From an uncultured Thermoleophilia bacterium (GTDB lineage Bacteria > Actinomycetota > Thermoleophilia > UBA2241): 64,000 nucleotides of DNA. The position numbers and the translations under genes are program-made. This document shows, piece by piece, positions 1,087-44,282 of the stretch. The first letter of the stretch is position 1. Each line of letters begins with the position of its first letter. The notes beneath the pieces were generated by a model that ran no database searches, had not been told where the DNA came from, and worked only from the letters and a program-made list of their open reading frames with translations. The stretch is taken from positions 276,158-340,157 of the forward strand of contig CAVPRQ010000009.1 in the NCBI GenBank assembly GCA_963707855.1, given 5' to 3'.

Positions 1087-1103
1087 AGGACCACCCTCTT
1101 TCG

Positions 1104-11040: not shown

Positions 11041-11802
11041 ATGACGCGCGTCATCGCCGTCACCAACCAGAAGGGTGGCGTTGGCAAGACGACGACGGCG
11101 ATCAACCTGGCCGCGTGCCTGGCCGAGGCCGGCCTGCCGGTGTTGATCGTGGACCTCGACCCGCAGGCGAACGCGTCCGCGGGCCTCGGGGTCCGCGGAC
11201 GCGAACCCGGCCTCACGACGTACGGTGTGTTGGCCGGCGATGCCACCCTCCGCGAGGCGGTGGTGCCGACCGCCGTGGAGGGGCTGGACCTGCTGCCGGC
11301 CTGCGCCGACCTGGCCGGCGCGGTCGCCGAGCTGGTCGGCTTGGACGGCGGCGACTTCGTCCTCGCGGGAGCGCTCGACGGGCAGCTCGGCAGCTACCGG
11401 TTCGTCTTCATCGACTGCCCACCGTCGCTCGGCATCCTCACCGTCAACGCCCTCACTGCGGCGCGCGAGGTGCTTATTCCTGTGCAGGCCGAGTATTACG
11501 CGCTCGAGGGGCTCGCCCAGCTCCTCGACACCGTCAGCCTGGTGCGTGAGCGCCTGAACCCTGACCTCCAGGTGCTCGGCGTGCTCGTGACGATGCTCGA
11601 CGCCCGCACGCGTATCGCTCGTGAGGTCGCGGCCGAGGTGCGCGAACACCTGCCCACACACGTCTTCGACGTCGCCGTCCCCCGCAACGTGCGCCTCGCG
11701 GAGGCGCCCAGCCACGGGCTGCCGATCTCGCGCTATGATGCCCGCTGCGCCGGCAGCGACGCCTACTTCGACCTTGCCAAGGAGGTCGTGTCCCGTGGAT
11801 GA
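11041..11802 (+). CDS. parA: Chromosome partitioning ATPase ParA/Soj
   Basis: Intact 253-aa ORF. MTRVIAVTNQKGGVGKTTTAINLAACLAEAG is the deviant Walker A. Also VLIVDLDPQANAS and FIDCPPSLGILTVNAL. Confidence 0.92.
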   Translation: MTRVIAVTNQKGGVGKTTTAINLAACLAEAGLPVLIVDLDPQANASAGLGVRGREPGLTTYGVLAGDATLREAVVPTAVEGLDLLPACADLAGAVAELVGLDGGDFVLAGALDGQLGSYRFVFIDCPPSLGILTVNALTAAREVLIPVQAEYYALEGLAQLLDTVSLVRERLNPDLQVLGVLVTMLDARTRIAREVAAEVREHLPTHVFDVAVPRNVRLAEAPSHGLPISRYDARCAGSDAYFDLAKEVVSRG

Positions 11803-12733
11803 GGGTCCGTCTCAGGGAGCGAAGAAGCGGGCCCTCGGCAGAGGGCTCGGCGCTCTCATCGGCGAGGGCTCGGCGGCCCTCGCCCGGGCCGGGACGGCCC
11901 CCGGTGAGGGCCGCCTCCGCGACCTCTCGCTGGACGCGATCGCCGTCAGCCGGCGACAGCCGCGGCGCGCTTTCGATCCCGACGAGCTCGCCGAGCTCGC
12001 CGCCTCCATCAGGGCCCTTGGCGTGGTGCAGCCGGTGGTCGTGCGGCCGCTCAGCGACGCCGGCGGGGCGGACGCGCCCACGCCGCCCGGCAGCGCTCGC
12101 TACGAGCTCATCGCCGGCGAGCGCCGCCTGCGGGCCGCGCGGCTCGCAGGCCTCGAGACCGTGCCGGCCCTCGTGCGTCCGGCCGACGAGGCTGCGGCCC
12201 TCGAGATAGCCCTCGCCGAGAACGTCGCCCGCGAGGACCTCAACGCGATCGAAGAGGCCCAGGCCTACGCGTCCCTCGTCGATGAGTTCGGGCTCACGCA
12301 CGAGCGCGTCGGCGAGCTCGTCGGACGCAGCCGTGTGGCGGTGACGAACACGCTGCGTCTGCTCGAGCTTCCTGACGAGGTGCAACGGATGCTCGAGTCC
12401 GGCACCTTGAGCGAGGGACACGGCCGCGCGCTTCTGGGGCTCGCCGACCACGGCCGACGCCGCGGCGTCGCCAAGCTCGTCAGCGAGCGCGGCCTGAGCG
12501 TGCGCGAGACGGAAGCGCTGGTGCGCAAGCTGGGCGCGCCGGAGAAGGCGACAGCCGTGCCGCCGCCTGCTGTCGGCGCCGACCTCGCCGGGCTCATCGA
12601 CGAGCTCTACGGTGTCTTCGAGGCTCCCGTGGCGATCCGCAGCGGCAAACGTGGCGGCAGGATCCAGATCTCGTTCCGCGACCAGGCCGAGCTCGAACGC
12701 CTGGTCGCGTTGCTCCGCACGCTCGCGCGCTGA
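11795..12733 (+). CDS. parB: Chromosome partitioning protein ParB/Spo0J
   Basis: In the frame of ORF 11621..12733 the start is GTG at 11795, overlapping the parA stop. Motifs: KRALGRGLGALI, SRRQPRRAFDPDELAELAASIRALGVVQPVVVRP, YELIAGERRLRAARLAG, and HTH QEEVGELVGRSRVAVTNTLRLLEL-like. Confidence 0.9.
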   Translation: MDEGPSQGAKKRALGRGLGALIGEGSAALARAGTAPGEGRLRDLSLDAIAVSRRQPRRAFDPDELAELAASIRALGVVQPVVVRPLSDAGGADAPTPPGSARYELIAGERRLRAARLAGLETVPALVRPADEAAALEIALAENVAREDLNAIEEAQAYASLVDEFGLTHERVGELVGRSRVAVTNTLRLLELPDEVQRMLESGTLSEGHGRALLGLADHGRRRGVAKLVSERGLSVRETEALVRKLGAPEKATAVPPPAVGADLAGLIDELYGVFEAPVAIRSGKRGGRIQISFRDQAELERLVALLRTLAR

Positions 12734-12774: not shown

Positions 12775-13386
12775 CTAGCCCGGCGCGCCGGTCGGCGCCG
12801 AGGTCGGTTCGCCGGTGCCGATCCCGGTGGTGTCGCCGGTCGATCCGGTGGGCGGTCCCGTCGCGCCCGGAGAGGGCATCGGCGGGGCCGAGGGCGTCGG
12901 CGTCACGCCGGGAGCGGTCGTGGCCGACGGCGCGGGGGTCGTCCCGGGCAGCGGCGTGGAGCCGGGCGGCGCCTCCCCGGACGACGGCACGTACACCGTG
13001 GTCCCATCGGCGAGGCGGTAGAAGGAACCGATCAGGGTGCCGACGCCGGTCGCCTGTTCACCCGCTTCGAGATCGAGCCGTTCGATCGTGTCGCCGGACT
13101 TGACGATGACCTGCATCTGGTCGGTGCCGGGGTTCGTCACGACGGTCATGTCTTTGCCGGTCAGGACATCGGTCATGCCCAGGCCGGTGAGGGCGGCCAG
13201 CAGGAAGCCGACGGCCAGCACGATGGCCACGTCGAAGAGGTTGATGACGCCGTCGAGGGGGTCGCCGTTGCGGTCGTGGCGGTCGACCCGGCGCCGCTTC
13301 ATGTAGCGCAGGCCCATGCCCTCGCCGGGCTCGTCCAGGACCGTCGGGAGGAAGCGGATGTCGCTGTCTTCGACCTCGTACGTCAT
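12775..13386 (-). CDS. DUF2149 family protein with a long Pro/Thr/Gly-rich C-terminal tail
   Basis: Intact 203-aa ORF. RNGDPLDGVINLFDVAIVLAVGFLLAAL is the DUF2149 hallmark plus a TM helix. A small globular part follows, then about 70 aa of PGSTPLPGTTPAPSATTAPGVTPTPSAPPMPSPGATGPPTGSTGDTTGIGTGEPTSAPTGAPG. Confidence 0.75.
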   Translation of the reverse strand: MTYEVEDSDIRFLPTVLDEPGEGMGLRYMKRRRVDRHDRNGDPLDGVINLFDVAIVLAVGFLLAALTGLGMTDVLTGKDMTVVTNPGTDQMQVIVKSGDTIERLDLEAGEQATGVGTLIGSFYRLADGTTVYVPSSGEAPPGSTPLPGTTPAPSATTAPGVTPTPSAPPMPSPGATGPPTGSTGDTTGIGTGEPTSAPTGAPG

Positions 13387-13585
13387 GGCGTCGTCCCCGT
13401 CAGCCGGTCGCGGCCTCAGCCGCGGCTCTCGGCGCCTTCGGCGGGGCCGAGCGAGGCGAACGGGTCCTCGTCGGCGTTCCAGCTCATCGTGTCGTCCTCG
13501 AACGAGGCGCGAGCCCCGCTGGCCGGCGAGGCTTCGAGACTCACCGGCAGGTCGACCGCCGCGGGGGCCGGCGCCGGGCCGTCCG

Positions 13586-14389
13586 TCACCGTCGCCGGCA
13601 CCTCAGCCGCGGCCGGCGGCGCGGCCTCGGCAGACGACGGCCGTCGGTAGAGGCCGCACCGTCGTCCGCCTCGTCGCCCGCGACGGGCGCCAGCTCGTCG
13701 ACCCAGCGGCCCTCTGCGTCTTTGCGGCGGCCAGCCCGCAGTCGCTTGGGGCCACCCTCGAGCAGCTCCAGCAGGTACTCGAGGTCGGAGATGTCCTGCG
13801 AGTAGATGCGGTCGCGGACGATGCTGACGACGAAGGCGAGGCCGCCGATGAGCAGGCCGATGACCGTCACCGAGAAGGCGATGCGCAGGTTGTCCGCCAG
13901 CTCGGTCGTGTCGCCTTCCGACAGGGCGACGAGCGCCGGCGACAGCGGGATGAGCGTGCCCATGAGGCCCAGCATCGGGCCGATGCGCACGAGGACCCGC
14001 GTCCGCTCCAGTCGCTTGACCGTGTAGAACTCGTACTCCTGGAGGAGCTTCAGCGGCTTCACCGCGAGGCGCTGCGTCTGGTAGTTCCGGATCAGGTCGA
14101 AGAGGAAGCGCGCGACGACCAGGGAGTAGTTGTTCTCCTGGAGGTAGCGGTAGGCGCGTCGCGGCTTGCCGTCGGCGAAGGCCTGGCGGGCGCGCAGGGT
14201 ACGGATCTCGAGCGCCTCGAGGTCGCGGTAGCGGAACCGCAGGTACAGCTCGTAGAACAGCCAGCCGAGCTCGATGAGCACCCAGATCAGGCAGACGACC
14301 GACGCGATCAGCACCGGGTAGAAGAGGAGTTCGGCGGCGTCGAAGATCGCCTGCTGGAGGTCCTGACCGAAGTCGGCGAAGATCAGCAT
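13586..14389 (-). CDS. MotA/TolQ/ExbB proton-channel family protein
   Basis: 267-aa ORF with three TM helices and the family core VLVRIGPMLGLMGTLIPLSPALVAL...LRIAFSVTVIGLLIGGLAFVVS. The Arg-rich last ~25 aa look out of frame. A shift near 13640 into the 13416..13601 frame (PATVTDGPAPAPAAVDLPV...DEDPFASLGPAEG) would extend the protein to 13416. Confidence 0.8.
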   Translation of the reverse strand: MLIFADFGQDLQQAIFDAAELLFYPVLIASVVCLIWVLIELGWLFYELYLRFRYRDLEALEIRTLRARQAFADGKPRRAYRYLQENNYSLVVARFLFDLIRNYQTQRLAVKPLKLLQEYEFYTVKRLERTRVLVRIGPMLGLMGTLIPLSPALVALSEGDTTELADNLRIAFSVTVIGLLIGGLAFVVSIVRDRIYSQDISDLEYLLELLEGGPKRLRAGRRKDAEGRWVDELAPVAGDEADDGAASTDGRRLPRPRRRPRLRCRRR

Positions 14390-14399
14390 GAGCCCGCGC

Positions 14400-16229
14400 T
14401 CACTCCTTCCGTGCGCCCGTCACGACGTGCCGGGCAGGTGGCCCTTGAGGCGCTGCCACGGCGTGCCGCCACCGGTCAGGAGCTTGCCCCGTCCGGCGCT
14501 CGACAACGCGGTCGCCTGACGGCGGTGCAGCCAGTACGAGAGACCCGCCCCATCGGCAACATACGCGAGCAACATACCACCGAGCGCGGCGCCGGAACCA
14601 CCCTCGCCGTCGGTCGCCGCCGCGGCTGAGGCGCTCGGCGACGGCAGCGGGCTGCCGCTCGGTCCGGGCGTCAGCGGCGTGCCCGAGACCGTTCCGTCGG
14701 TGGACGGCGTCGTCGTGGGGACGGCGTCGCGCCGGCGTGGGGTACAGCGTGGTCGTCGGCGTGGGCGGGCGACCGCTGCCGGGGGTGCTCGGCGGGTAGT
14801 AGATGCCGCCCGATCCACCGGACGAGCCGCCGCCCGACGAGCCGCCGCCCGGGGTGTAGCTCACGGTGATCGTGTGCGTCTGCGTCCGCTGGTTCCCGGC
14901 CTTGTCCGCGACGCGTATCTCGATGGTGTGCTGTCCGTAGCTGAGGTCGACGAGCACGAGCGAGAGCCCGGACGCCGTCACTTTGGCCTTGCTCGTCTTG
15001 TTGGTACCGTCGACCGTGACGCGCACGGCGACCTTGTCGATCCCCGTGCCGGTCTCGTTGTCCTTGTACTCGGCGATCACGCTGACGTCGTTGGTCGACG
15101 CGAACACCGCCCCGTTTCCGGGCTTGAACGAGGTGATGCTCGGAAGGTAGCCCGAGGTGAGGGTCCGGTCTGCCGGGGACAAGGGAAAGGGGGCGCCGGA
15201 GAGCGCGAGCACGCATTGGGTCGTCGTCATCATGGTGCTGCGCCCGGTGCTGCCCTTGGCGTGCGCGAAGGAGCCATCCGGCTTCCTGAGGCTGCGCAGG
15301 TACTCCAGCGGGTCGTGCCCATTCCTGACCCACCCATCGCCGGTCGGCTCCTGACGAACGGCCTCGATCGCCTGTACGGTCCACGCGGTGGACTCGGCGT
15401 TCGACTTCGTGCTGGCGAGGTACTCGCCGAACCCGCCGTCGGCGCGCTGTGCGGCACGCAGGAAGCCTATGCCTTGCTGGACGGTGGAGTTCGAGGCGCC
15501 AAGGCCGCCGGCGACGAGCGCCTGCACGGCGGCGGCGGTCTGGTCGACCGAGCTGCCGGCGCCGTTCTGGATGCCCCAGCCGCCGTCCGCGTTCTGGGCA
15601 GCCGCCAGCCATCGGCGCGTCTCCGTCACGACGTCGCCATCGAGGGACTGGCGGGCGGCGACGAGGGCGAGCAGGGCCCACGTGGTGGTGCTCACGTCGT
15701 AGAGGTCCCGGTCGCCGGAGGTGGCAGGCGAGAAGTGACCGTCGATGTCCTCGTCGGCGGGCGTCGCCGGATTGTCCTCGACGTCGTAGCGGTAGCTCAG
15801 CAGCTTGGCGAGCAGGTCGATCCGTGGCGTGCCGGCAGAGAAGACCATGCTGATCTTGCCCGCGGCCATCACCGCCATGATGGTCTTCGCGTAGTAGGAC
15901 GGCGGATTCATGCTCGCCTTCGCCACCTGCTCGAGGTTCAGCGACTGGAGGTAGTCGATGGGGTCCTTGCCGGCCTTGTTCCACGCCAGGGGGTCCTCGC
16001 GCGCCGCGACGATGGCCAGGATCGCCCACGGCGTGGTGTTGGGACTGTCGGACTGCCCGGCGTCGACGAAACCGCCGGTGCTCCGCTGCTGGGCGTGCAT
16101 GAAGTCGAGCGCCTTCAGGACCGCGCTGTCGCGCGCTCCGAAGGCCGACGCCGGCGCGATGGCGCCGACCAGCAGAAGGGCCGAGAGAACGAAGGCCAGC
16201 AGCGCAGCCGGCCTGGATGTGTTCGTCAT
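14400..16229 (-). CDS. Secreted alpha-toroid (prenyltransferase/squalene-cyclase-repeat-like) surface protein with Ig-like domain and C-terminal anchor; frame break near 14745
   Basis: Start is ATG at 16229 (MTNTSRPAALLAFVLSALLLVGAIAPASAFG signal peptide). Repeated QxxxGGF/W motifs: AQQRSTGGFVD, AAQNADGGWG, AAQRADGGFGE, LRKPDGSFAH. An Ig-like segment and a GGGSSGGGSSGGSGG linker follow. The true C-terminus continues in the 14420..14818 frame (PT-rich, then AALGGMLLAYVADGAGLSYWLHRRQ TM anchor), ending at 14420. Confidence 0.75.
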   Translation of the reverse strand: MTNTSRPAALLAFVLSALLLVGAIAPASAFGARDSAVLKALDFMHAQQRSTGGFVDAGQSDSPNTTPWAILAIVAAREDPLAWNKAGKDPIDYLQSLNLEQVAKASMNPPSYYAKTIMAVMAAGKISMVFSAGTPRIDLLAKLLSYRYDVEDNPATPADEDIDGHFSPATSGDRDLYDVSTTTWALLALVAARQSLDGDVVTETRRWLAAAQNADGGWGIQNGAGSSVDQTAAAVQALVAGGLGASNSTVQQGIGFLRAAQRADGGFGEYLASTKSNAESTAWTVQAIEAVRQEPTGDGWVRNGHDPLEYLRSLRKPDGSFAHAKGSTGRSTMMTTTQCVLALSGAPFPLSPADRTLTSGYLPSITSFKPGNGAVFASTNDVSVIAEYKDNETGTGIDKVAVRVTVDGTNKTSKAKVTASGLSLVLVDLSYGQHTIEIRVADKAGNQRTQTHTITVSYTPGGGSSGGGSSGGSGGIYYPPSTPGSGRPPTPTTTLYPTPARRRPHDDAVHRRNGLGHAADARTERQPAAVAERLSRGGDRRRGWFRRRARWYVARVCCRWGGSLVLAAPPSGDRVVERRTGQAPDRWRHAVAAPQGPPARHVVTGARKE

Positions 16230-16963
16230 GGTGCGTCCTCCAGTCCCACGAAGGTGACGCGGGTCCGGACACGGAACCGAGCCACAATGGTAACAGCCTG
16301 CACGCCGAACAGACCAGCGAACAGGCAGGTCGCGGCGACGTGCGCGACATCGAACGGCAGGCCCTGCGCGTAGAGCGCGACGAGCGCCGGCAGGGTCCGG
16401 GGCGTGTACGCAAGGAACATCCAGAGGGTCACGAACCAGTCGAAGGCCAGGGCGAGCACGCCGCCGGCAGCGACGAGCTCCCAGCGGCGCGGCAGGCGGC
16501 CGCCGCGGCCGAGCAGGCCGCCGGCGGCCCCGACCGCGCCCCAGGCGAGCATCTGCCACGGCGTCCACGGACCTTGGCCGAAGAACAGGTTCGAGACCAG
16601 GGCGGACGTGGCCCCGACCATGAATCCGGGGCCGGGGCCCAGCGCGACGCCCGAGACCAGGACGACGAAGGTCACCGGTTTGACGTTGGGCAGCGACGCG
16701 AACAGCACGCGGCTGGCCGTGGCCAGGGCGGCCAGGGCGGCGACCAGCGACAGTTCGTGCGCCGCCGTCGCGCGCCGCCCGTAGGCGGCGACGCCGACGG
16801 CGACGAGGGCGAGTACCGCGGTGAAGCTGACGGTGCCCCAGTCGACGGCACCCGGGTCGGCCACCGCCCAGAGGGCGAGCAGGCCCGCGAGGGCGACGAG
16901 CCCTACGAGAACCACGCGGCTCAGGTCGAAGCGCAGGGCGCTCACTGCGGCGAGTCCTCCCAT
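16226..16963 (-). CDS. ECF transporter substrate-specific (S) component
   Basis: This is the C-terminal 245 aa of ORF 16226..17803, starting at ATG 16963 (or GTG 16945, which forms a GTGA overlap with the ATPase stop at 16942). It has 5-6 TM helices: LFASLPNVKPVTFVVLVSGVALGPGPGFMVGATSALVSNLFFGQGPWTPWQMLAWG. Confidence 0.75.
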   Translation of the reverse strand: MGGLAAVSALRFDLSRVVLVGLVALAGLLALWAVADPGAVDWGTVSFTAVLALVAVGVAAYGRRATAAHELSLVAALAALATASRVLFASLPNVKPVTFVVLVSGVALGPGPGFMVGATSALVSNLFFGQGPWTPWQMLAWGAVGAAGGLLGRGGRLPRRWELVAAGGVLALAFDWFVTLWMFLAYTPRTLPALVALYAQGLPFDVAHVAATCLFAGLFGVQAVTIVARFRVRTRVTFVGLEDAP

Positions 16964-18627
16964 TCGACCTCGTCCTCGTTCAGGACGCCGGGGAGCGCGT
17001 GCCGGAGCAGCCGGTTCACCTGGGTCGAGAAGAAGAGCGCGGCCGTTCAGCACGTCGTCGGCCGGCCCGTCGGCGAGGATGCCGCCGTCGCCCAGCACGA
17101 GCACGCGTGTCGCACAGCGCGCGGCGAACTCGACGTCGTGTGTGACGACGAGGACGCAGCGTCCGTCCGCGACCCAGCGGCGCAGGGTACGTGCGAGCTC
17201 GCCCTTGTGCGTCGGGTCCATGCCCCGGGTCGGCTCGTCGAGGACGACGAGCGCAGGATCGCCGCAGGCCACGGCGGCCAGCGCGACCCGCGTGCGCTCT
17301 CCTCCGGAAAGGTCGCGCGGGTCGCGCTGGAGCAGCCCGGCGAGGTCGAGCTCGGCGACGATCCTCGCCGCGAGCTCGTTGCGCCGGGCGCCGTCCAGCT
17401 GCGAGGTTCTCAAGCGTGAGGTCGATCTCGGCGGCGACAGTGTCGCGGACGAAGTAGTCGTTCGGGTTCTGGCCGAGCAGGGCGCAGGAGCGCGCGGCCT
17501 CGGCGACCGACAGCGTGGACACATCCTTGCCGAGCAGCCGGACGGAGCCGCGGAAGGGCTTGCAGCAGGCCGTTGAAGTGCCTGACGAGCGTGGACTTGC
17601 CGGCGCCGTTCTCGCCCATGAGAGCGACGAGCTCGCCGCGGCGCAGCTCGAGCGACACGCCCTCGAGGAGGGGCGCGTCGCGCTCGTAGCCCACGGCGAG
17701 CTTCTCCGCCCTGAGCACGACGTCGCCGGGGAGCGCTCCAGGCTCGGCCTCCCGGCGCCGCGGCATCTGACTCCCTCGACCACGTCGAGCATGTGGCGCG
17801 CATCCTTCACCGTCATGGGCAGGTGGCCGTCCGCGGCGGATGCGGCGGCCTGCCCGTTGAGCCGTCGGGCGAAGAGACGCGCGACGGGGGGGAGGAGTTC
17901 GCGGCGCGTCGACACGGCCCAGCCGGCGAACTCCTGTGGGGCGGCGTCCACCAGTACGGCACCATCCTCCATGTAGATCACGCGCGTCGCCAGGTGAAGG
18001 CAGCGTTCGACCCTGTGCTCGGCGAGGACGATCGTCGCTCCGGTGTCCTCGGAGAGCCGGCGGATGGCGGACAACAGCTCCTCGGAGCTCACGGGGTCGA
18101 GCTGCGACGTCGGCTCGTCGAGCAGGAGGAGATGGGGCTGGGTGGCGATGACGGCGGCGAGCGCCACCTTCTGGAGCTCGCCGCCCGAGAGCTCGGCGAG
18201 AGGCGCATGGCGCAGGTGCGAGAGGCCGAGGGAGATGAGGGCCTCCTCGACGAGGCGCGTGATGGCCGAGCTCGTCGACACCGAGGTTCTCGAGCCCGAA
18301 GGCGATCTCGCGCTCGACCGTCGTCATGACGGCCTGGTTCTCGGGGTCCTGGAAGACCAGGCCGACGCGATGGGCGAGGTCGTGCGGCCGGGCGGTGCGG
18401 GTGTCGAACTCATCGACCGTCACGCGACCCGCGAAGGTCCCGCCGTGGAAGTGCGGGACGAGACCGTTCAGGGCGCGCAAGCAGGGTCGACTTGCCGCTG
18501 CCCGAGCCGCCGAGCAGCAGGATGACCTCGGCGGGCCTGATCGACAGCGTCACGTCGCGCAACGCGGGCGCGCGTCGCGCCCGGGTAGGTGTAGGTGACG
18601 CCCGTCGAATTGCGCGATGGCGGTCAC
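16942..18627 (-). CDS. Fused tandem ECF/ABC ATPase (EcfA-EcfA'-like); about 8 frame breaks as assembled
   Basis: Two ABC domains can be pieced together from three frames. Domain 1: GGSGSGKSTLLRALNGLVPHF, VGLVFQDPENQ, LSGGELQKVALAAVIATQPHLLLLDEPTSQLD, TIVLAEH. Domain 2: LMGENGAGKSTLVRHFNGLLQ, LLGQNPNDYF, LSGGERTRVALAAVACGDPALVVLDEPTRGMD, VLVVTHD. Breaks lie near 18601, 18570, 18478, 18275, 17775, 17565, 17405 and 17035. The GTG start at 18627 overlaps the EcfT stop. Confidence 0.85.
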
Positions 18628-19550
18628 GGGCGTCCTCTCGTCAGCACGACGACGCCGGGGACGACGAGCGCGACGACGGTGACGACCCACCAGGGGTCGG
18701 TGAGCTGAGCCCAGGGGTCGTCGAGCAGAGGGAAGAAGCCGTATGCCCACGGCGCCGCGCGAGGAGACCGGCGAGGAGGGCGACGGCGGCGAGCAGGGCG
18801 CCGCCGGCGAGGGCCACGTCGGCGGCCCGCCAGGGCCGCCGGTGCAACCATCGCGAGCGGCGTCCGCTGCCGTAGCCGCGCGCCTCCATGGCGGCGGCCA
18901 CGTCGACGGCGCGCTCCAGGCTGCGCGTAAGAAGCGCGCCGAGCAGGGGCAGGCGCGCCGCGGCGCGCGTCCTGCGCGTCCCGCCGGTCGAGCTCCATGC
19001 CCCGCGCCCTCTGGGCGTCGGCGATGTGAGAGCCGTCGCGGGAGAGCACAGGCAGGAGCCGAGTGGCGAGGGAGAGCACGAGGCCGGAGCGGAAGGAGAA
19101 GCGGCTCATGAGCCCGAGCTGGTCGTCAGGCTCCAAGGCGACGTTGAAGAGCGCGAAGGCGAGCACGACCGCCGTCAAGCGCAGAGCGGTGGTGACGCCG
19201 TAGACCAGGCCCTGCAGGGTGAGCGTGATCTCGAAGACCCAGAGATCGGCCTGCCAGATGACGTCGAGCCCTCCGCGACTGAAGAACGGGTTGAGGATGG
19301 CGAGGAAGAGGCCGACGGCGAGGGCGACGCGGACGTACGGCAAGCTGGCGCGAAGCCGACCCGCTGCGGCGAGCAGGGCGACGATCACGCCGAGCAGGAT
19401 CGCCACCTGGATGGGGTTCACGACCACCAGCGCGGCGAAGGCGACGGCGGCGACGTAGGCGGCGCTCGCCGCTGGCTGACGTCGCGCGAGGGCGCACGCC
19501 GCCGTCGCACGCGGCCGCCGCCGGCCCGCCGCTGCGGCGTGCGCGCTCAT
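18624..19550 (-). CDS. ECF transporter transmembrane (T) component, EcfT/CbiQ family; about 2 frame breaks
   Basis: Start is ATG at 19550 (ATGA overlap with the upstream stop). AAVAFAALVVVNPIQVAILLGVIVALL...LRLTAVVLAFALF...SFRSGLVLSLATRLLPVLSRDGSHIADAQRARGMEL continues after a shift near 18965 (RLPLLGALLTRSLERAVDVAAAMEARGYG) and another near 18750. Confidence 0.8.
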   Translation of the reverse strand: MSAHAAAAGRRRPRATAACALARRQPAASAAYVAAVAFAALVVVNPIQVAILLGVIVALLAAAGRLRASLPYVRVALAVGLFLAILNPFFSRGGLDVIWQADLWVFEITLTLQGLVYGVTTALRLTAVVLAFALFNVALEPDDQLGLMSRFSFRSGLVLSLATRLLPVLSRDGSHIADAQRARGMELDRRDAQDARRGAPAPARRASYAQPGARRRRGRRHGGARLRQRTPLAMVAPAALAGRRRGPRRRRPARRRRPPRRSPRAAPWAYGFFPLLDDPWAQLTDPWWVVTVVALVVPGVVVLTRGRP

Positions 19551-20486
19551 CCCTTCGTCCACGGCAATGCGACCAGCCGGTCGTCGACGAGCGCGACGCC
19601 GACCCTGGCGTTGAGCGCGTCCGCGGAGAGGCGCGAGAGCAGGTCTTCAAGGTCTGCGCCGGACGCGCCCAGCAGGATCAGGAAGGGGCGCGACGGGTCG
19701 TCCTGGTTGGGCGCCGGCAGGGCGGCGGCCGCCGCCCGCGGCCCCGCGGACCCGTCAGGCGCCAGCAGGGTGAGGTGCCGTCGTCGACGCGCGCCATCTC
19801 GAGTCCGCTGCGTTCGGGCCCGAGCAGCTCGACGAGCCACGGCGTCGCGGCCGCCTCGCCGGCGGTCGCGACCACGATGCCGCCGCGAGGCCGCTCGCCG
19901 GCGAGCTCCCGGCGCGCGTCCAGTTCGATGCCGGATGCCTTGGCCCAGTCGACAAGCCCGGTGACTTCGGCGTCGGCGGTCAACGCCTGCGGGCGCGCCT
20001 GCGTACGGCCGCGGGAAGGCGTGCAGGGCCTGGGGCACGTACATCGCGTCCGCCCAAGGGTGGTAGTCCCACCACACGGTCTCTCCGCCCTTGAGCTTCC
20101 GCTCGTCGGCGCCGACGTCGGCCATCTCACCGTCGACCCAGTAGAACCAGTCGGCGGCATCGTCGGAGCCGGCGGCGCCGAAGGTGGACGCGAGCCCGTC
20201 GATGCCATTCACGAACCGACCGCCGTAGCCGGCCTCGACGTCCGCGTGCTCGGCGAGCAGGCGCAGGACGTCGAGGCCCTCATCGGCGGGGGCGAGCACG
20301 TCTCGCATGATCTGGCTTCCGAAGCCGCGAGACACGACGAGGCGCACTTCATCAGCGGCCGGCGGCTGTCCTGCGGCCGACCCCTTGCCCACGTCGTCGC
20401 GTACCCCCGCGCACCCAGCGAAGACGAGGGCGGCGAAGGTGAGGCCCGGCGAGGACCGGCGTCAGGATCGTGCGCCTTGCGCTCAT
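19547..20486 (-). CDS. DUF4430 (transcobalamin C-terminal-like) lipoprotein; about 3 frame breaks
   Basis: Start is ATG at 20486. After repairing a CCC run at 20445-20447 the N-terminus reads MSARRTILTPVLAGLTFAALVFAGCAG, which is a lipobox. The DUF4430 core is GGRFVNGIDGLAS...DWFYWVDGEMADVGADERKLKGGETVWWDY. The middle part lies in the 19678..20208 frame, and the C-terminus returns to the 19547 frame. Confidence 0.75.
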
Positions 20487-20517
20487 GCGTGTGTCTCGCG
20501 ACGGATCGGCGGCCGGC

Positions 20518-21610
20518 CTAACGGGCGACCGCCGTCGTGCTCAGCGGTGTCGCCGTGCGACCCCAGGTGTCGACCGCCGTCACGCGGATCGTGTACGTTC
20601 CGGGGCGCACGGCGCGGCCGGCGGCCGTGCGTCCGTCCCAGAGCATGGTCACGGTACCGCCGCCGACGCGCCGCGACAGCGCCGCGCATCAGGCTGCCCG
20701 GCTCTCGAGCGCACGGTGTACTTCACGGTGGCGCTGCGCGAGAGACGTGAAGCCGATGCGGACGGTCTGCCCGGGCGCGAAGCGCTGTGGCGCGACGGTG
20801 AGAGCGCTGAGGGTGAGCGGGTCGGCGACGTTCACGAGACTCTGCGTCGAGCGGACGTAGGCGAACGTCGCGTCCATGTCGCGTTCGGCCCAGACCCTAG
20901 ACGTCCCGGATCGGCGGCGACGCGACGGTCACGACGCCGCTCGGCGTCGCTGACGTAGGTCGCCGTCCCCACGTGAACGACGGCGCCGGCGACGGGGGCG
21001 AACTGCGCGGAGGTCTCGACGGCGTCCGCGCCGACGCCGAAGCGCGTGGCGTCCTCGAGGGTGTTCGCCTTGGCGAGATCGTCGCCGACGACGGTCACGA
21101 CGAGCGGCTGGCCGGTGGCCAGCGCCTTCTTCGAGACACGCACCTGCAGCTGCCTTGGTGCCGTGCGCGAACGCCCGTCAGGGTACTGCGTGAAGAGGAC
21201 GCCGGTCGCCCTTCTGGAGCCTGAAGCTGTAGGCGCCGACGTCCACCACCGGGTAGCCGGCGCCGTTGACGGCGTAGATCCAGCCCTGCGAGTAGTCGGG
21301 AAGGGCGCCGAAGCCGGCGATGATGGTGATGAAGTCGCCGCCGTAGGCGGCCTCGAACGAGAAACCCCTCGCGTCGCCCGCGGCGGCGAGCGCAGCCGAG
21401 CGCGGAGGCGTAGCCGGGTCGGTAGGGATCGCCAAGGTCGTCGAAGAAGCGCGCGGTGGCTGACACGTCGACCCTGGTCGGCGGCGCGACCTCGAAGGGG
21501 GCGGCCTCGACGCGCACCGTCGCCGACACGGCGAGCGCAGAGGGTACGGCGACGAGCCCGATCAGCAGGGCGAAGGTCGCGGCCAGCAGGACACGAGCAC
21601 GAGCTCCCAT
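20518..21610 (-). CDS. Secreted DUF4430 protein with C-terminal FlgD-Ig-like domain; at least 5 frame breaks
   Basis: ATG at 21610 is preceded by AGGAG. The signal peptide is MGARARVLLAATFALLIGLVAVPSALA. The DUF4430 core lies in the 21178..21435 frame (GGDFITIIAGFGALPDYSQGWIYAVNGAGYPVVDVGAYSFRLQKGD). The C-terminus GGGTVTMLWDGRTAAGRAVRPGTYTIRVTAVDTWGRTATP is a FlgD-Ig-type motif and ends at TAG 20518. Confidence 0.7.
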
Positions 21611-21661
21611 GGGAACTCCTTTCCGGCGCCGGGCGATCGCCCATCCGTGCGAAGCTGGCTT

Positions 21662-21693
21662 AACGAACAAACCCCGCTGCTCTCACAACGGGG
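21662..21693 (-). terminator. Intrinsic terminator forming the riboswitch expression platform
   Basis: Minus-strand reading is CCCCGTTG-TGAGAG-CAGCGGGG (8-bp stem including one G-U pair), followed by TTTGTTCGTT. It lies between the aptamer and the first gene of the operon. Confidence 0.6.
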
Positions 21694-21714
21694 TGGTCGA
21701 CCACTCTCGCGAGC

Positions 21715-21910
21715 ACCCATCCACGTGGGAAGCAGCTTCGCAGGCGGCTCAGCAGGTTTTCTGGCTCCCGGTCGTACTGCACACGCCTCCGCTGCCTTCC
21801 CGGACCCTCAGGTCCAGTGACTCTCCTACAGGAGAACGCGAGAGGCGGCGACCGGTCACAGCGGCGGGACCGCGCCGGATTCACACCGGCTTCCCTCGAG
21901 GGCACTAGCC
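21715..21910 (-). promoter_or_regulatory. Cobalamin (adenosylcobalamin) riboswitch
   Basis: Minus-strand reading is GTGCCCTCGAGGGAAGCCGGTGTGAATCCGGCGCGGTCCCGCCGCTGTGACCGG ... GAGAGTCACTGGACCTGAGGGTCCGGGAAGGCAGCGG ... GGGAGCCAGAAAACCTGCTGAGCC. This matches the conserved core (AGGGAA, GGTG..AA.CC, GC.G.CCCGC.GCTGT, CACTGG...GGGAAGG) and the B12 box (AGCCAG.A.ACCTGC). Confidence 0.9.
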
Positions 21911-21938
21911 GCGCGCCATCGATTGATTGGCACAGGGC

Positions 21939-21967
21939 ATGCTACAGCAGGTCTCAGGGCCGGGCAA
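21939..21967 (-). promoter_or_regulatory. Putative promoter of the riboswitch-controlled operon
   Basis: Minus-strand reading is TTGCCC (21967-21962), a 17-nt spacer, then TAGCAT (21944-21939), about 30 nt upstream of the aptamer. Confidence 0.4.
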
Positions 21968-22066: not shown

Positions 22067-22336
22067 ATGGTGACTACCTTGATCGACCGAGCCGATGACA
22101 TCGCCGAGCCTGACGTCGAGTTCTTCGGCGTCAAGCTCAAGGTGAAGAACGCCCGTCTCGCGACGCTCCTCAACAGCAGCGTCAACGAGAACGTGGTCGT
22201 CATCGGCCGCCGCACCGTCGACCTGCTGGCGCGGGCCGACGAGGACGAGGCTCTCGAGGGCGTTCGACGCGTTGCCGGCCGAACCGGACTGACAGGTCGC
22301 CCCGAGGACGGGGAGCGACGGGGCCGGCGGGCGTGA
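22067..22336 (+). CDS. Small hypothetical protein (89 aa)
   Basis: This is the inner ATG of ORF 21923..22336. MVTTLIDRADDIAEPDVEFFGVKLKVKNARLATLLNSSVNENVVVIGRRTVDLLARADEDEALEG has protein-like composition. I recognise no family. Confidence 0.5.
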   Translation: MVTTLIDRADDIAEPDVEFFGVKLKVKNARLATLLNSSVNENVVVIGRRTVDLLARADEDEALEGVRRVAGRTGLTGRPEDGERRGRRA

Positions 22337-22384
22337 AGCCCGCCGGCCCCGTCGCTCCGTGAGGATGTATCCTTTGGAGCCGAC

Positions 22385-23447
22385 ATGGACGGCCTGCTCT
22401 CGCTCGTCATCCCGGTGTACAACGAGGTCGCCAGTCTCGACCCGCTCCTCGGCGAGCTCGACGCCGCGGTCGCCGAGCTGGGCGTCCCCGCGGAGGTCGT
22501 CTTCGTCGACGACGGCTCCACCGACGGCTCGTTCGCCGAGATGGAGCGCCTTGCGGCCGACCGGGACGACGTACGCATCGTCAAGCTGCGGCGCAACTTC
22601 GGCAAGTCGGCGGCGCTCGCCTACGGCTTCGCCGCCGTCCGCGGCGACGTGATCGTGACCCTCGACGGTGACCGCCAGGATGACCCGCGCGAGATCGGCA
22701 AGCTCGTCGCCGCTCTCGACGAGGGGTACGACCTGGTCTCGGGCTGGAAGCAGGGCCGCCAGGACCCGGCGAGCAAGACGCTGCCCTCGCGCTTCTTCAA
22801 CTGGACGGTCCGGCGGACCACGGGGATCCAGCTGCACGACTTCAACTGCGGCTTCAAGGCGTACCGCCGGGAGGCCGTCGACGCGGTCGTCGTCTACGGC
22901 GAGCTGCACCGCTACATCCCGGTCGTCGCCGCGCAGCAGGGCTTTCGCGTCGGCGAGGTCAGGGTCGCCCACCGCCGGCGGACCGCCGGACAGTCCAAGT
23001 TCGGCTGGCAGCGCTTCGCCCGCGGCTATCTCGATCTGCTCACCGTCCTCTTTCTCGGCCGGTACCACAGCCGCCCGCAGCATCTCTTCGGCGGGCTCGG
23101 GTCGCTCCTCTTCCTCGCCGGGTTCCTGATCGCCGGCTACCTCACCGTCGACAAGCTCGCCTTCGGCCATGCCCTCAGCGACCGCCCGCTGCTGCTTCTC
23201 GCGGTGCTGTTCATGATCGTCGGCGTGCAGCTCGTGTCCCTGGGCCTGCTCAGCGAGCTGATCGTCAACTCGCGGGCGCGGAGCGGGCCAGACCCGGCGT
23301 GGATCGCGCGCGTCGTCGAGCCGGGCGAGGCCCGCGCCGATGTCGCGGCGCGCGGTCGAGGACGCGGACGGCGAGCGCCGAAGCGGAGCGGGCCGCCGTC
23401 GCACCGCCGGATCGCGCGCCCGCGTGACGCCCGGCCGGGAGCCGTGA
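22385..23447 (+). CDS. GT2 polyprenyl-phosphate glycosyltransferase (GtrB/Ppm1/ArnC-like) with two C-terminal TM helices
   Basis: Motifs: LSLVIPVYNEVASLDPLL, VVFVDDGSTDGS, RNFGKSAALAYGFAAVRGDVIVTLDGDRQDDP, DFNCGFKAYRRE, then TM helices LFGGLGSLLFLAGFLIAGYL and LLLLAVLFMIVGVQLVSLGLLSELIV. As assembled it reads through into the next gene (750-aa ORF). The GTGA at 23444-23447 suggests the true stop after a tail frameshift. Confidence 0.85.
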
Positions 23448-24566
23448 TCCGGGCCGTCGCCTACGTCGGGACCTACGAACCCGACTACGCCCGCAACGCC
23501 GTGCTCATGGCCGGACTGCGGGAGCGCGGAGTCGTCGTCCACGAGATCCACGCCCCGCTGCCGGCGCTCGACGCCGCCGGCATGGCGACGCCGGCCGGGG
23601 CGACGCGCGTCGCGGCGGGGCTCGTCGAGGCGCATGCGCGGCTCGCCCTGCGGCACCGGCGCGAACTCGCCGTCGATGCCGTGATCGTCGCCTACCCCGG
23701 GCACTTCGTCGTCCCGTTCGGCCGAGCCCTCGCCACGGTCCGGCGGGCCCGGCTCGTGTTCGACCCGCTGGTCTCGCTCGCCGACACGTTCAGCGGCGAT
23801 CGCGGGCTCGTCGGCGAGCACTCCGCTGCTAGGGCGCGCGGTGGACGCGGTCGACCGCGTCGCGTTCGCGCTGCCCGACCTCGTGCTCGCCGACACGTGG
23901 GAGCACGCCGCGTTCTACGGCGAGCGTTTCGGGCTGCCGCGCGAACGTCTCGCGGTCGTGCCGGTCGGAGCGGCGCCGGAACCGAAGGCCACCGGCGCCG
24001 CGCGGTCACTCATGGCGGACGAGCGCCTGGTCGTCTTCCAGTACGGCAAGTGGAGCCCGCTGCACGGCGCCGAGACGGTGCTGGCGGCGGCGGAGCTGCT
24101 GCGCGATCGTCCCGTGCGCTTCGTCCTCGCCGGCGAGGGCCAGCTCTCGGCGGCGTTGCGCGCCGAGATCGACCGGCGCCGCCTGGACGAGGTCGAGTGG
24201 CTCGGCATGCTGGCGCCCGAGGAGCTCCGCGCGAGGACGCTGGCCGCCGACGTCTGTCTCGGCGTCTTCGGCACGTCCGCCAAGGCGCGCCGGGTCGTGC
24301 CGACGAAGGTCCACGAGGCGCTTGCCTGCGGCCGGCCGGTCGTGACGGCCGACACGGCGGCGGCGCGCGAGCTCCTCCAGGACGGGGTCGACGCGGCGTT
24401 GGTGCCGCCCGGCGACGCGGACGCGCTCGCCGGCGCCCTCGCGCGCCTGCAGGACGAAGGGCTCCGGGCCTCGCTCGGCGCGGCGGCCCTCGCGACCTAC
24501 CGGCGGGCGCTCACGCCCGCGGCGGTCGCCGGCCGTCTGCTCCAGGCTCTCGGCGAGGGCGCGTGA
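23444..24566 (+). CDS. GT4/GT1-family glycosyltransferase; frame break near 23835
   Basis: The N-terminus VIRAVAYVGTYEPDYARNAVLMAGLRERGVVVHEI lies in the 22385 frame. The C-terminal part lies in the 23841..24566 frame: VFQYGKWSPLHGAETVLAAAELLRDRPVRFVLAGEGQ...PTKVHEALACGRPVVTADTAAARELL. Confidence 0.75.
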
Positions 24567-25555
24567 ACGCGCCCGCGCGGGGACCGCGGCGGCGGGCGCC
24601 GCCACCGCGTCCTGCGTCGTCGTCCAGGCGGTCCTGACCGTCGCGGCGCTCGTGTTCGTCGCGCTCGCCCTGGCCAGCTCGTGGGACGAGGTGCAGGCGT
24701 ACGAGTGGTCCTTTCACCCGGCCTGGCTCGCCGTCTCGGGGCTCGTGATCCTCGCGTTCTACGTCCTGCAGGCCGCCGGGTGGTGGATGCTCCTGCGCTC
24801 CCTCGCGCTGCACGTGCCGGTGCGTTGGGCGGCGGCTTCGTGGGGTCGGTCGATCGTCGCCCGCTACATCCCGGGCAACGTCTTCATGGTGCTCGGGCGC
24901 GCCCTGTCGAGCCAGCGTCGAGGGCTTGAGCTGCGTCGCGTCAGCGCGGCGATGGTGTACGAGCAGGCGCTCGCCTTCTGCGCGGCACTCGTGACCCTTG
25001 GGCTGCTGTTTCCCTTCTGGGAGTATCGCCCCGGGCTGACGGCCCTGAGCCTGCTCGGCATCCCGGTGCTGCTCGCGCTCCTGCATCCGCGCGTGTTCGT
25101 CCCGCTCGCCGACCGTCTGCTGCGCCTGGCCGGTCGCGAGCGCCTCGGCGTCGAGCTGCGCTTCGGCCGGGTCGTCGCGCTGCTCTGCTACTATGTCGCC
25201 GCTTGGTTCGTCGCGGGCGTCGCGTGCTGGTCGCTGGCGCGAGCCGTCACCGATGTCGGCGTCGACGCACTGCCCGCCGTGACCGCCGCCTTCGCGTTCG
25301 CGTTCGTCGTCAGCATGGCGGCGTTCGTCTTTCCCGGCGGGCTGGGCATCCGTGAGGTCGTCCTCGCCGGCGCGCTCGCGGGCCCCTTGGGCTCCGGCGT
25401 CGCGCTCGCGTGGGCCGTGCTCCTGCGCCTGTGGCAGATCGCTCGTGGAGCTGGGCTTCGTCGGCCTGGTCACGCTCGTCGAGCGCGTGGCGGGCGACCG
25501 ACGGACGACGAGGGCCGCGAGGCGCGACGGCGTCGCGCGACGGAAGGGGAACTGA
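24563..25555 (+). CDS. Flippase-like / lysylphosphatidylglycerol-synthase TM-region family membrane protein (UPF0104); breaks near 24590 and 25440
   Basis: The main ORF 24652..25581 has 7-8 TM helices and the family motif AAFVFPGGLGIREVVLAGAL. The probable start is GTG at 24563 (GTGA overlap with the GT4 stop), followed by a shift in the GGCGGCGGG run. The C-terminus is better in the 25352..25555 frame (LVELGFVGLVTLV). Confidence 0.7.
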
Positions 25556-25559
25556 GCCG

Positions 25560-33633: not shown

Positions 33634-33682
33634 GCCGACGGCGTGGGGCCGCCGGTCCTCCGCCATGCCGCGTCGATAGGAT

Positions 33683-42946: not shown

Positions 42947-43004
42947 GGGCGGCGATGGGAGCGACGGGCGTGACGAGGATGACGGCGCGACGAGGACACG
43001 AAGA

Positions 43005-44261: not shown

Positions 44262-44282
44262 CGCCGTCCCGCCGGCCCCGTC

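Follow-up and report, generated by a model that had tools for sequence, protein, structure and literature searches.

A cobalamin-riboswitch operon of an uncultured Thermoleophilia bacterium encodes a predicted ECF-CbrT-type importer together with a toroid surface protein and an ExbB-like/DUF2149 pair

Two described systems are closest to the locus studied here. A MotA/TolQ/ExbB-family protein and a DUF2149 protein are known as HmuU and HmuV from the hmuYRSTUV heme operon of Bacteroidota (PMC10434189, PMC11681262), and ECF-CbrT of Lactobacillus delbrueckii (6FNP), an energy-coupling factor (ECF) transporter, imports vitamin B12 and cobinamide at the expense of ATP (PMC5997447). We analyzed a 64-kb stretch of DNA (the window; 70.8% G+C) from an uncultured bacterium of the class Thermoleophilia (Actinomycetota), to which the names of close homologues also assign it, and in which members of both families are encoded behind one cobalamin riboswitch. 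Eight co-oriented genes follow the riboswitch on the minus strand, and they encode two DUF4430 proteins, EcfT, a fused EcfA-A' ATPase, an S component, a surface protein with an alpha/alpha toroid (the toroid protein), a MotA_ExbB-family protein (the MotA-like protein), and a DUF2149 protein. All eight families had been named in an earlier interpretation made from the DNA letters (the sequence-only reading), and each is supported by Pfam or NCBIfam matches. We read the locus as a two-module B12 uptake operon in which a proton-driven, TonB-independent pair acts on an anchored toroid binder whose ligand is passed to CbrT, and we give this reading a little less than an even chance.

The function of HmuU and HmuV has been rated unclear and without experimental test, and a possible role in inner-membrane transport has been given to HmuT/U/V of Porphyromonas (PMC12094164). 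A figure legend draws HmuU and HmuV as a gradient-using unit together with the receptor HmuR; the same paper describes HmuS as anchored by N- and C-terminal helices and as needing no ATP, unlike CobN and ChlH, and mentions archaeal HmuS/CobN homologues without a known role (PMC12583661). The sequence-only reading took the pair to be undescribed, and this part of it has to be given up. The pair is known as a pair and belongs to the HmuU/HmuV family, without the other defining features of Hmu or of Ton/Tol. The open-access literature yielded no paper on the pair in monoderms or archaea, on its operon link with ECF or B12 genes, or on the C-terminal anchor shared by its partners; nor was anything found on DUF2162 or on CobN combined with MotA/TolQ/ExbB in archaea. 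To our knowledge, Ton and Tol have been described for diderms only, and energy delivery outside the cytoplasmic membrane of monoderms and archaea is largely unexplained.

The riboswitch was matched by cmscan to RF00174 at 21733-21924 of the minus strand, scoring 83.2 bits where the gathering threshold is 31.5 (E = 5.5e-19). The alignment covers the full-length model (positions 1-189), including the B12 box, and RF00174 is the sole Rfam family above threshold within the window. The aptamer had been placed at 21715-21910 in the sequence-only reading, and a terminator hairpin at 21662-21693; both are present. A consensus scan found a terminator-like hairpin at 21694-21671 with TTTGTTCGTT directly 3' of it, and together with sequence reading this delimits a 10-bp GC-rich hairpin and a T-rich tract (21661-21694, minus strand) that probably form an expression platform resembling an intrinsic terminator. 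The hairpin lies in the 123 nt between the riboswitch and the ATG of gene 1 (21610), which is preceded by the ribosome binding site GGAAAGGAG. The riboswitch is kept at the head of the operon in seven of the eight full-length orthologous loci in which all eight genes are present (L001, L087, L090, L102, L103, L104, and L146; Rfam), and in the eighth a contig end cuts the leader off. From its position in the 5' leader of B12 transport genes, it is the predicted regulator of the operon. A small open reading frame (ORF) of about 63-76 aa (22067-22255, plus strand) is divergent from the leader and is kept in L001 and L090 with 60-65% identity.

The first five genes resemble a complete ECF transporter with accessory proteins. 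Gene 1 (20518-21610; this and all following operon genes are on the minus strand) encodes a secreted protein with the signal peptide MGARARVLLAATFALLIGLVAVPSALA, a DUF4430 domain (Pfam, on the piece 21181-21435), and a C-terminal FlgD_ig-like Ig domain; its orthologue on a related long contig (L001) has 361 aa. Gene 2 (19559-20486, ATG at 20486) encodes a DUF4430 lipoprotein (Pfam, E = 8e-13), and its orthologues in L001, L087, L088, and L090 have lipoprotein signal peptides with the lipobox L-x-G-C. DUF4430 is the C-terminal domain of transcobalamins (TCN proteins) (PMC4350170). Single-sequence searches of the PDB with both DUF4430 proteins gave no significant match. EcfT (18624-19562) belongs to the CbiQ family (PF02361, E = 9e-12; TIGR02454 on the L001 protein). 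The EcfA-EcfA' fusion (16942-18627) is recognized by pieces of ABC_tran; it has 558 aa in the orthologues, and the L001 protein matches TIGR04520 with 349 bits (cut-off 315, E = 1e-104) and TIGR04521 with 340 bits (cut-off 330, E = 7e-102). The S component (16226-16963; PF07155/DUF6580) is 87% identical to its L001 orthologue, for which phmmer found 6fnp_A as the sole PDB match (E = 2.5e-16). Judging from its length of 182 aa, chain A of that entry is probably CbrT. The riboswitch, the two DUF4430 proteins, EcfT, EcfA-A', and the S component are predicted to constitute a dedicated, ATP-driven cobalamin importer of the ECF-CbrT type with extracytoplasmic accessory binders. Both the riboswitch and the ECF-CbrT part fall into known families as ordinary members.

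The other three genes are joined closely to these five. The S and toroid genes share a 4-nt overlap (16226-16229), and the same overlap of stop and start is found in L001 and L087. The gap is about 30 nt between the toroid stop (14420) and the ATG of the MotA-like gene (14389), about 29 nt between the MotA-like and DUF2149 genes, and 31 nt between genes 1 and 2, so that the overlaps and short gaps of the sequence-only reading agree with the mapped starts and stops. That reading had also allowed for a separate promoter or terminator between 14389 and 14420. The consensus scan, which does not reach non-consensus sites, found neither between the toroid and MotA-like genes. No promoter-like site was found in the operon region, and the other terminator-like match was only a chance-level hairpin inside the toroid coding region. 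Because of the overlap and the gaps of about 30 nt that lack promoter or terminator consensus, the operon is probably one B12-regulated transcription unit. The proposal of a B12-regulated uptake operon is supported by the riboswitch in seven of the eight orthologous full-length loci and by the relationship of the S component to CbrT.

The toroid protein (14420-16229) matches Prenyltrans/SQHop_cyclase and Big_13 in Pfam. It consists of a signal peptide, an alpha/alpha toroid, an Ig-like domain, a Pro/Thr-rich linker, a Gly-rich segment, a C-terminal transmembrane (TM) helix, and a cytoplasmic tail of about 35 aa. The Pro/Thr-rich linker before the TM helix comprises about 65 aa (14560-14760, minus strand). 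An AlphaFold2 model (pLDDT 88.5, pTM 0.84) shows the toroid at residues 35-343, followed by an Ig-like sandwich. The best Foldseek matches were single-domain squalene-hopene-cyclase-like proteins (E = 1.5e-8), followed by prenyltransferase beta subunits and complement TED domains, and intrinsic factor (3kq4_A) ranked 26th (E = 2.4e-5). Transcobalamin or intrinsic factor had been expected as the best match, and this was ruled out, since cyclase-like and prenyltransferase toroids score better. Sequence searches of the PDB detected no similarity of the toroid or DUF4430 proteins to transcobalamin or intrinsic factor. A class II terpene cyclase of the squalene-hopene type was also considered and rejected. 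The DxDD(T)A site of terpene cyclases (toroid residues 226-232) reads SSVDQTA in the window clade. In relatives it reads SDVDDTA in several proteins, including some S-component fusions, SDTNTTA in toroid-DUF4430 fusions, and PTAGATG in one protein from a locus with the last three genes alone. Because DxDD is replaced by SVDQ and varies across the family, and because the protein is exported, we treat it as a predicted binder and not as a cyclase.

The C-terminal part of the toroid protein is no less conserved than its globular part. In the window clade, the mean pairwise identity is 61% for the TM helix and 51% for the tail vs 47% for the globular domain, and two motifs are conserved, TLLAMLPIGA..SY and GGG[ST][PA]W.R.K. 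Judged from these alignments, the conservation of helix and tail appears to exceed the need of a passive anchor.

Relatives of the toroid protein occur in other B12 contexts. Seven homologues are fused to ECF S components (P0303, P0330, P0331, P0342, P0345, P0346, and P0350), three are fused to DUF4430 in the two-domain architecture of transcobalamin (P0362, P0372, and P0388), and one is fused to a BtuF-type Peripla_BP_2 domain (P0328). One locus (L163) consists of a cobalamin riboswitch, two genes without a Pfam match, and genes for DUF4430, EcfT, EcfA-A', and an S-toroid fusion, and it adjoins a Cob_adeno_trans gene. A second (L164) encodes FecCD, an ABC ATPase, a beta-propeller protein, DUF4430, and a fusion of a toroid with a BtuF-like domain. 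In a third (L165), a toroid-DUF4430 protein is encoded beside an adenosyltransferase and a ribonucleotide reductase with RNR_Alpha and RNR-II_ins_dom domains, which we read as a putative class II, B12-dependent enzyme. None of these three loci contains a MotA-like or DUF2149 gene.

The MotA-like protein (13416-14389; HmuU family) matches PF01618 with 31.8 bits vs a cut-off of 22.9. A single-sequence search of the PDB gave no significant match. A profile of 25 diverse family members aligned with ExbB (5sv0) at E = 0.0027 over three TM helices (profile residues 13-188, 5sv0 16-199); TolQ came next, and TolQ, PomA, and MotA were all weaker than ExbB. The motif GPxLGLMGTLIP...AF..TV.G in TM2/TM3 is invariant among the 25 members. 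By this profile match, the protein is clearly assigned to the ExbB type over its full length, as expected for the MotA/TolQ/ExbB-family channel protein of the sequence-only reading. It is 89% identical to its L001 orthologue, and it and the DUF2149 protein are among the best conserved proteins of the operon. Members from the window clade are extended at the cytoplasmic C-terminus by an acidic stretch of low complexity, about 120 aa long, that ends in SFEDDTMxWxxDEDPFAxLGP; it was seen in the window (13419-13502, minus strand), L001, L087, L090, L105, L127, and L158 and not in archaeal, Bacteroidota, or Planctomycetota members. The extension might touch the toroid protein at the latter's cytoplasmic tail, which is basic.

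The DUF2149 protein (12775-13386; HmuV family; PF09919, E = 4.8e-23) has a basic cytoplasmic N-terminus (RYMKRRRVDRHDR), a TM helix with D52 in the motif NLFDV, a small beta domain, and a Pro/Thr-rich C-terminal tail of about 70 aa (12775-12985, minus strand). The AlphaFold2 model places the TM helix at residues 45-68 and the five-strand beta domain after it. The Pro/Thr-rich stretches of the toroid protein (about 65 aa) and of DUF2149 (about 70 aa) would be long enough to span a Gram-positive wall. The family comprises 427 representative clusters at E <= 0.001 with the consensus DPLxGxxNLFDVAxVxAVAL, followed by a domain of about 70 aa (GxGxxxGxAYRLxDGxxVYVP). In at least 123 of 137 loci, the DUF2149 gene directly follows the gene for the MotA-like protein. 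The protein crosses the membrane once, with its N-terminus inside, and the Asp of its TM helix is nearly invariant, being found in 57 of 64 family representatives and in 140 of 160 ORFs at the loci. A single TM Asp is typical of the B subunits of 5:2 motors. In a comparison with the E. coli sequences, this residue aligns with D25 of ExbD and D23 of TolR, and hhalign gave a probability of 14-19% over the TM helix only.

The outer domain of DUF2149 is another matter. Pfam ExbD (PF02472) matched none of 64 DUF2149 members at E <= 5. Foldseek with the model gave nothing at E <= 0.001 and no ExbD or TolR among the 50 best listed matches, and the family profile gave only non-significant matches to the TM helices of TolR (E = 0.67) and ExbD in the PDB, where the single sequence had no significant match at all. 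The idea of a recognizable ExbD homologue was dropped after these null results from Pfam, Foldseek, and profiles, and the analogy of the TM Asp was kept. The outer domain is predicted to be a small beta fold other than that of ExbD/TolR. The ExbD-like partner of the sequence-only reading is retained in its single N-in TM helix, its Asp, and its place next to the MotA-like gene, and not in its domain homology.

The foreign outer domain, which is unlike those of ExbD, TolR, and MotB, would suit a pair that is not a force-generating motor and is instead a channel or a transporter component for a small solute (a proton, a metal ion, or the ligand itself). This would also agree with reviews of the Porphyromonas Hmu system, in which HmuT/U/V are assigned a possible part in heme or iron transport at the inner membrane (PMC12094164), and with DUF2162, annotated by Pfam as a predicted transporter, in the CobN-type loci. 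We consider a channel of this kind quite unlikely, since the operon in the window contains a complete ECF importer and no DUF2162, the A subunit matches ExbB over three TM helices with conserved TM2/TM3 motifs, and the B subunit retains the single TM Asp of the 5:2-motor type. In addition, a pair of a 3-TM and a 1-TM protein would offer no obvious path for a corrinoid of 1.3 kDa.

The gene order was compared within the window clade, for which 80 loci with DUF2149 identities of 54-97% were drawn from metagenome contigs. Neighbours were classed with profiles built from L001 and Porphyromonas gulae proteins. The full eight-gene operon (class A) was found in about 15 loci with enough upstream sequence, and the toroid-MotA-DUF2149 trio alone (class B) was found in about 12 loci with 4-10 kb of upstream sequence. 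The trio is invariant in about 30 clade loci, with or without ECF genes. In a neighbour-joining tree of the MotA-like proteins, class B falls mostly into one clade and class A into the other, with one exception. No cobalamin riboswitch was found by Rfam in eight class B loci or in a ninth, L166. The synteny with ECF and DUF4430 genes expected by the sequence-only reading therefore applies to the class A clade; in the sister class B clade, the toroid protein is the constant neighbour. The conserved partner of the pair in this clade is the toroid protein, not the ECF transporter. By this comparison, the locus appears to consist of two evolutionarily separable modules, the importer and the trio of toroid, ExbB-like, and DUF2149 proteins.

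The separability allows for a trio that is an independent envelope system with a ligand or task other than B12 (another tetrapyrrole, a nutrient, or the cell wall). The ECF-CbrT cassette would then have landed or been kept upstream of it, and the two would share transcription and not mechanism. Class B loci, which lack riboswitch and ECF genes, are consistent with this idea, and one of them (L105) can be aligned with the window to either side of the cassette that it lacks; the class A architecture, on the other hand, is stable over DUF2149 identities of 54-97%, and the 4-nt overlap ties the S and toroid genes together in the window, L001, and L087. The trio is convergent with parB-parA whatever lies upstream, and the partners of the pair are very diverse across phyla, being CobN-like, NHL-repeat, or giant CARDB/propeller proteins. 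The toroids themselves, however, are elsewhere fused to ECF S, DUF4430, and BtuF-like domains in B12 contexts. Weighing these points, we regard an independent trio as unlikely, though it retains appreciable weight as the foremost of the rival readings.

The parB-parA genes (11041-12733, plus strand) are convergent with the trio in essentially every clade locus (L083-L162 and L166), and in L166 gidB/rsmG lies just beyond parA. A functional link between the trio and parAB was rejected, because the genes are convergent; the arrangement is read as conserved synteny only, and the position of the trio appears to be conserved and origin-proximal. At the edge of the window (1-1131, minus strand), a gene that runs off the window encodes the TIM-barrel alpha subunit of D-lysine 5,6-aminomutase (PF09043, E = 3e-165). 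This enzyme is adenosylcobalamin-dependent, and its gene, 12 kb from the uptake operon, indicates B12 use by the organism.

The pair occurs beyond this clade with other partners. The genome collection was scanned with the pattern NLFDVAMV, which excludes the window clade (NLFDVAIV) and only samples distant lineages. Bacteroidota loci have the order HmuY-HmuR-CobN(HmuS)-HmuT-MotA-DUF2149. Planctomycetota, Verrucomicrobiota, and several methanogens (Methanococcoides, Methanoculleus, and others) have HmuT-like-MotA-DUF2149-CobN-like without a receptor, and the archaeal HmuT-like protein is DUF2162 in Pfam. Receptor-less modules of this kind are seen, for example, in methanogens and Planctomycetota at L040 8704-15097, L052 8668-15200, and L029 8410-14776. 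Archaea have neither an outer membrane nor TonB-dependent receptors, and they carry the MotA_ExbB-DUF2149 module. In ANME-1, Methanobacteriota, and Syntrophoarchaeum, the pair is preceded by a giant surface protein of 1776-2660 aa with CARDB repeats, varied NosD-like beta-helix, toroid, PQQ-propeller, or DUF3344 segments, and a C-terminal TM anchor (L007 2281-11354, L002 2868-10308, L039 1151-11820, and L032 1897-10360). In ANME-1 locus L007, a BtuF-like Peripla_BP_2 protein with PGF-CTERM is encoded downstream of the pair, and L002 and L039 have a gene of similar size at this position. In L082 (7664-10489), which may be actinobacterial as a PASTA-domain gene lies nearby, MotA-DUF2149 is preceded by a 569-aa NHL-repeat protein, probably a beta-propeller, with a TM helix at its end; Pfam and Rfam scans of this locus found no B12 or ECF genes and no riboswitch.

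These partners have a common feature at their C-termini. A single C-terminal TM helix is present in 60 of 62 CobN-like and 44 of 44 toroid proteins, as well as in the archaeal giants and the L082 NHL-repeat protein. The toroid proteins, the archaeal giants, and the NHL-repeat protein have a Gly-rich segment before this helix and, usually, basic residues after it. Every partner class of the pair is a large extracytoplasmic protein with a C-terminal membrane anchor.

These observations can be combined into a mechanism for the B12 uptake operon proposed above. The ExbB-like and DUF2149 proteins would form a proton-conducting, stator-type complex in which the TM Asp of DUF2149 is the proton-binding residue. 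The complex would engage the C-terminal TM helix and the cytoplasmic tail of the toroid protein, and the proton-motive force would change the conformation of this wall-spanning binder. The toroid and DUF4430 proteins would jointly capture a corrinoid, in the manner of a transcobalamin divided between separate proteins, and the tightly bound ligand would be released to CbrT and then imported at the expense of ATP. The link to B12 is drawn because RF00174 is present here, in seven of the eight orthologous loci, and in the motor-less locus L163, because the S component is homologous to CbrT, because DUF4430 is a transcobalamin domain, because of the fusions and contexts of the toroids, and because a lysine 5,6-aminomutase gene lies nearby. 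A motor-type pair is proposed from the PF01618 and ExbB profile matches of the MotA-like protein, from the single N-in TM helix of DUF2149 with its Asp, and from the adjacency and strong conservation of the two proteins. The coupling to the toroid protein is drawn because the trio is invariant, the TM helix and tail are conserved, and all partner classes are TM-anchored. The gene content, the regulatory signal, the families, the conservation of both modules, and the C-terminal anchors are direct observations; what we infer from them is that the pair forms a complex and is coupled to protons, that the toroid and DUF4430 proteins bind B12, and that the vitamin is handed over to CbrT.

Several points weigh against this mechanism. 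In class B, the trio stands without riboswitch, ECF, or DUF4430 genes within about 10 kb, so the trio can do without the ECF module and may have a ligand other than B12. Conversely, ECF/DUF4430/toroid systems exist without the motor pair in other lineages. Outside the TM helix, neither the Pfam and profile comparisons nor Foldseek detected homology of DUF2149 to ExbD, and the analogy of the toroid protein with transcobalamin, as judged from its model, appears to be one of fold class and domain combinations only. Finally, six of the eight operon genes are frame-broken in the window.

The frame breaks were examined by comparing the window DNA with three short-read metagenomic relatives, L087 (86-94% identical), L088, and L090. 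In and around the operon, only the S component, DUF2149, ParA, and ParB have intact frames. The gene list of the sequence-only reading stands; the breaks are a correction to it, at which it had only hinted by calling for frame-repaired translations. The other six genes are broken by about 20 window-specific indels of 1-2 nt. These are reproducible across the comparisons, are mostly single-base insertions, and cluster at 17040-21394, with deletions near 13641, 14697-14733, and 19775. Indels lie, among other places, at about 17040, 17403, 17560, 18274, 18479, 18604, 18966, and 20000. Their density is about 2 per kb in 17.0-21.4 kb vs 0-1.1 per kb in the flanks. Gene 1 requires at least four frame repairs, and tblastn places the L001 protein in frames -1/-2/-3/-2. 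Gene 2 is also frame-broken, and EcfT is broken near 18966 and 18749. EcfA-A' has about 8 indels (frames -2/-3/-1/-2), and the breaks in the toroid and MotA-like genes lie at 14697-14733 and near 13641, respectively. The operon could on this account be a decaying pseudogene array in which the frameshifts are real and nothing functions. About 20 frameshifting indels within 8.6 kb, densest in 17.0-21.4 kb and mostly outside homopolymers, would be expected of such an array; accompanying in-frame stops are absent, however, and the G+C content at third codon positions is 0.85-1.0 in every frame piece, leaving the codon bias undisturbed. The L001 proteins map onto the window in alternating frames, and the operon proteins retain 64-89% identity to intact orthologues. 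All eight genes are intact in L001 and in every short-read relative. L001 has its own cluster of such differences at another place. Stop-free switches of the coding frame, traced by G+C content at codon positions, were also seen elsewhere in the window (1601-2277, 3859-4271, 8719-9646, 22381-27142, 33678-34420, 42945-45095, and 59205-60000), for example in a glycosyltransferase gene starting at 22385 and a radical-SAM gene near 9089-9718. The indel noise is therefore not limited to the operon, which fits an error-prone long-read assembly. Consensus errors of long-read assemblies typically include 1-nt insertions in excess, and the excess is strong here. Because the indels are window-specific and mostly 1-nt insertions outside homopolymers, the codon bias is intact, similar clusters occur elsewhere, and the short-read relatives are intact, the breaks are most likely patchy assembly errors rather than gene decay, and we consider a pseudogene array very unlikely.

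Judging from this operon, uncultured Actinomycetota of soil and sediment seem to invest in an apparatus for surface capture, made of DUF4430 and toroid proteins, that stands before ECF-CbrT. A broader generalization is tentative and rather unlikely to be correct as it stands: the ExbB-like/DUF2149 pairs would be a distinct, widespread branch of proton-driven motors of the 5:2 type, independent of TonB and the outer membrane, that grip the C-terminal anchors of large extracytoplasmic proteins to energize them. In Bacteroidota, Planctomycetota, and methanogens the partner would be a CobN-like dechelatase, in ANME archaea a giant surface protein, and in Thermoleophilia the transcobalamin-like toroid. 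For the operon in the window, B12 capture would then be a two-energy process, in which the proton-motive force strips the vitamin from a surface binder and ATP drives its import through ECF-CbrT. A pair with a constantly anchored surface partner would be a testable candidate for energy delivery outside the cytoplasmic membrane. Work on heme in Bacteroidota usually depicts HmuU and HmuV as assisting the receptor HmuR. The module beside a CobN-like protein without a receptor in archaea and Planctomycetota points to HmuS, not HmuR, as the energized partner, and the question of the role of HmuU/V becomes a testable TonB-independent hypothesis.

Compared with HmuU/HmuV of Porphyromonas, Prevotella, and Bacteroides, the pair in the window belongs to the same two Pfam families with the same order and adjacency. 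The proteins form one coherent alignment in which GPxLGLMGTLIP / AF..TV.G and NLFDV are invariant, and in both cases the pair adjoins a large, C-terminally anchored extracytoplasmic protein, which handles a tetrapyrrole in Hmu. The partners in Hmu are the CobN-like HmuS, the DUF2162-type HmuT, the TonB-dependent receptor HmuR, and the hemophore HmuY, under iron/heme regulation in a diderm envelope. The window has instead a toroid partner, a B12 riboswitch, and an ECF importer, without DUF2162, CobN, or a receptor, in a lineage taken to be monoderm, and profile searches seeded with P. gulae proteins did not find HmuS, HmuT, HmuR, or HmuY in the window-clade loci. The acidic tail of about 120 aa in the MotA-like protein and the extra basic N-terminal segment and Pro/Thr-rich tail of DUF2149 are further differences.

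With ExbB-ExbD-TonB and TolQ-TolR-TolA, the trio shares a 3-TM subunit of the ExbB type and a single-pass, N-in partner with a TM Asp of the essential type. By analogy only, its third protein can be added to these parallels, with one TM helix and an outward-reaching, Pro-rich spacer. Unlike in these systems, the outer domain of DUF2149 is not predicted to have the ExbD/TolR fold and has no PF02472 match, and the protein presumed to be energized has a C-terminal instead of an N-terminal TM anchor and carries the ligand-binding domain itself. Neither a TonB or TolA homologue nor a TonB-dependent receptor is among the eight operon genes according to Pfam, as the sequence-only reading had stated for TonB and the receptor, and the HmuR profiles match no related clade locus; the absence of an outer membrane is presumed from taxonomy.

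The importer module has a homologous S component, EcfT, and two ABC ATPase domains in common with ECF-CbrT of L. delbrueckii. It differs in having a dedicated ECF module whose genes accompany that of the S component in the style of group I, in joining A and A' in one chain, and in the addition of three extracytoplasmic proteins and the ExbB-like/DUF2149 pair under riboswitch control. As for transcobalamin, intrinsic factor, and haptocorrin, an alpha/alpha toroid and a beta domain of the DUF4430 type are both encoded here, and some bacterial relatives hold both domains in one chain. In the window, they are on separate proteins, the toroid is nearer to cyclase-like folds, and B12 binding is a prediction. 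BtuG and BtuH of Bacteroides are surface corrinoid binders of very high affinity that act with the TonB-dependent BtuB in a diderm and are not known to involve dedicated motor genes. Their beta-propeller fold is unrelated to the toroid, and they share with the proposed apparatus the arrangement of a surface corrinoid binder that feeds a membrane transporter.

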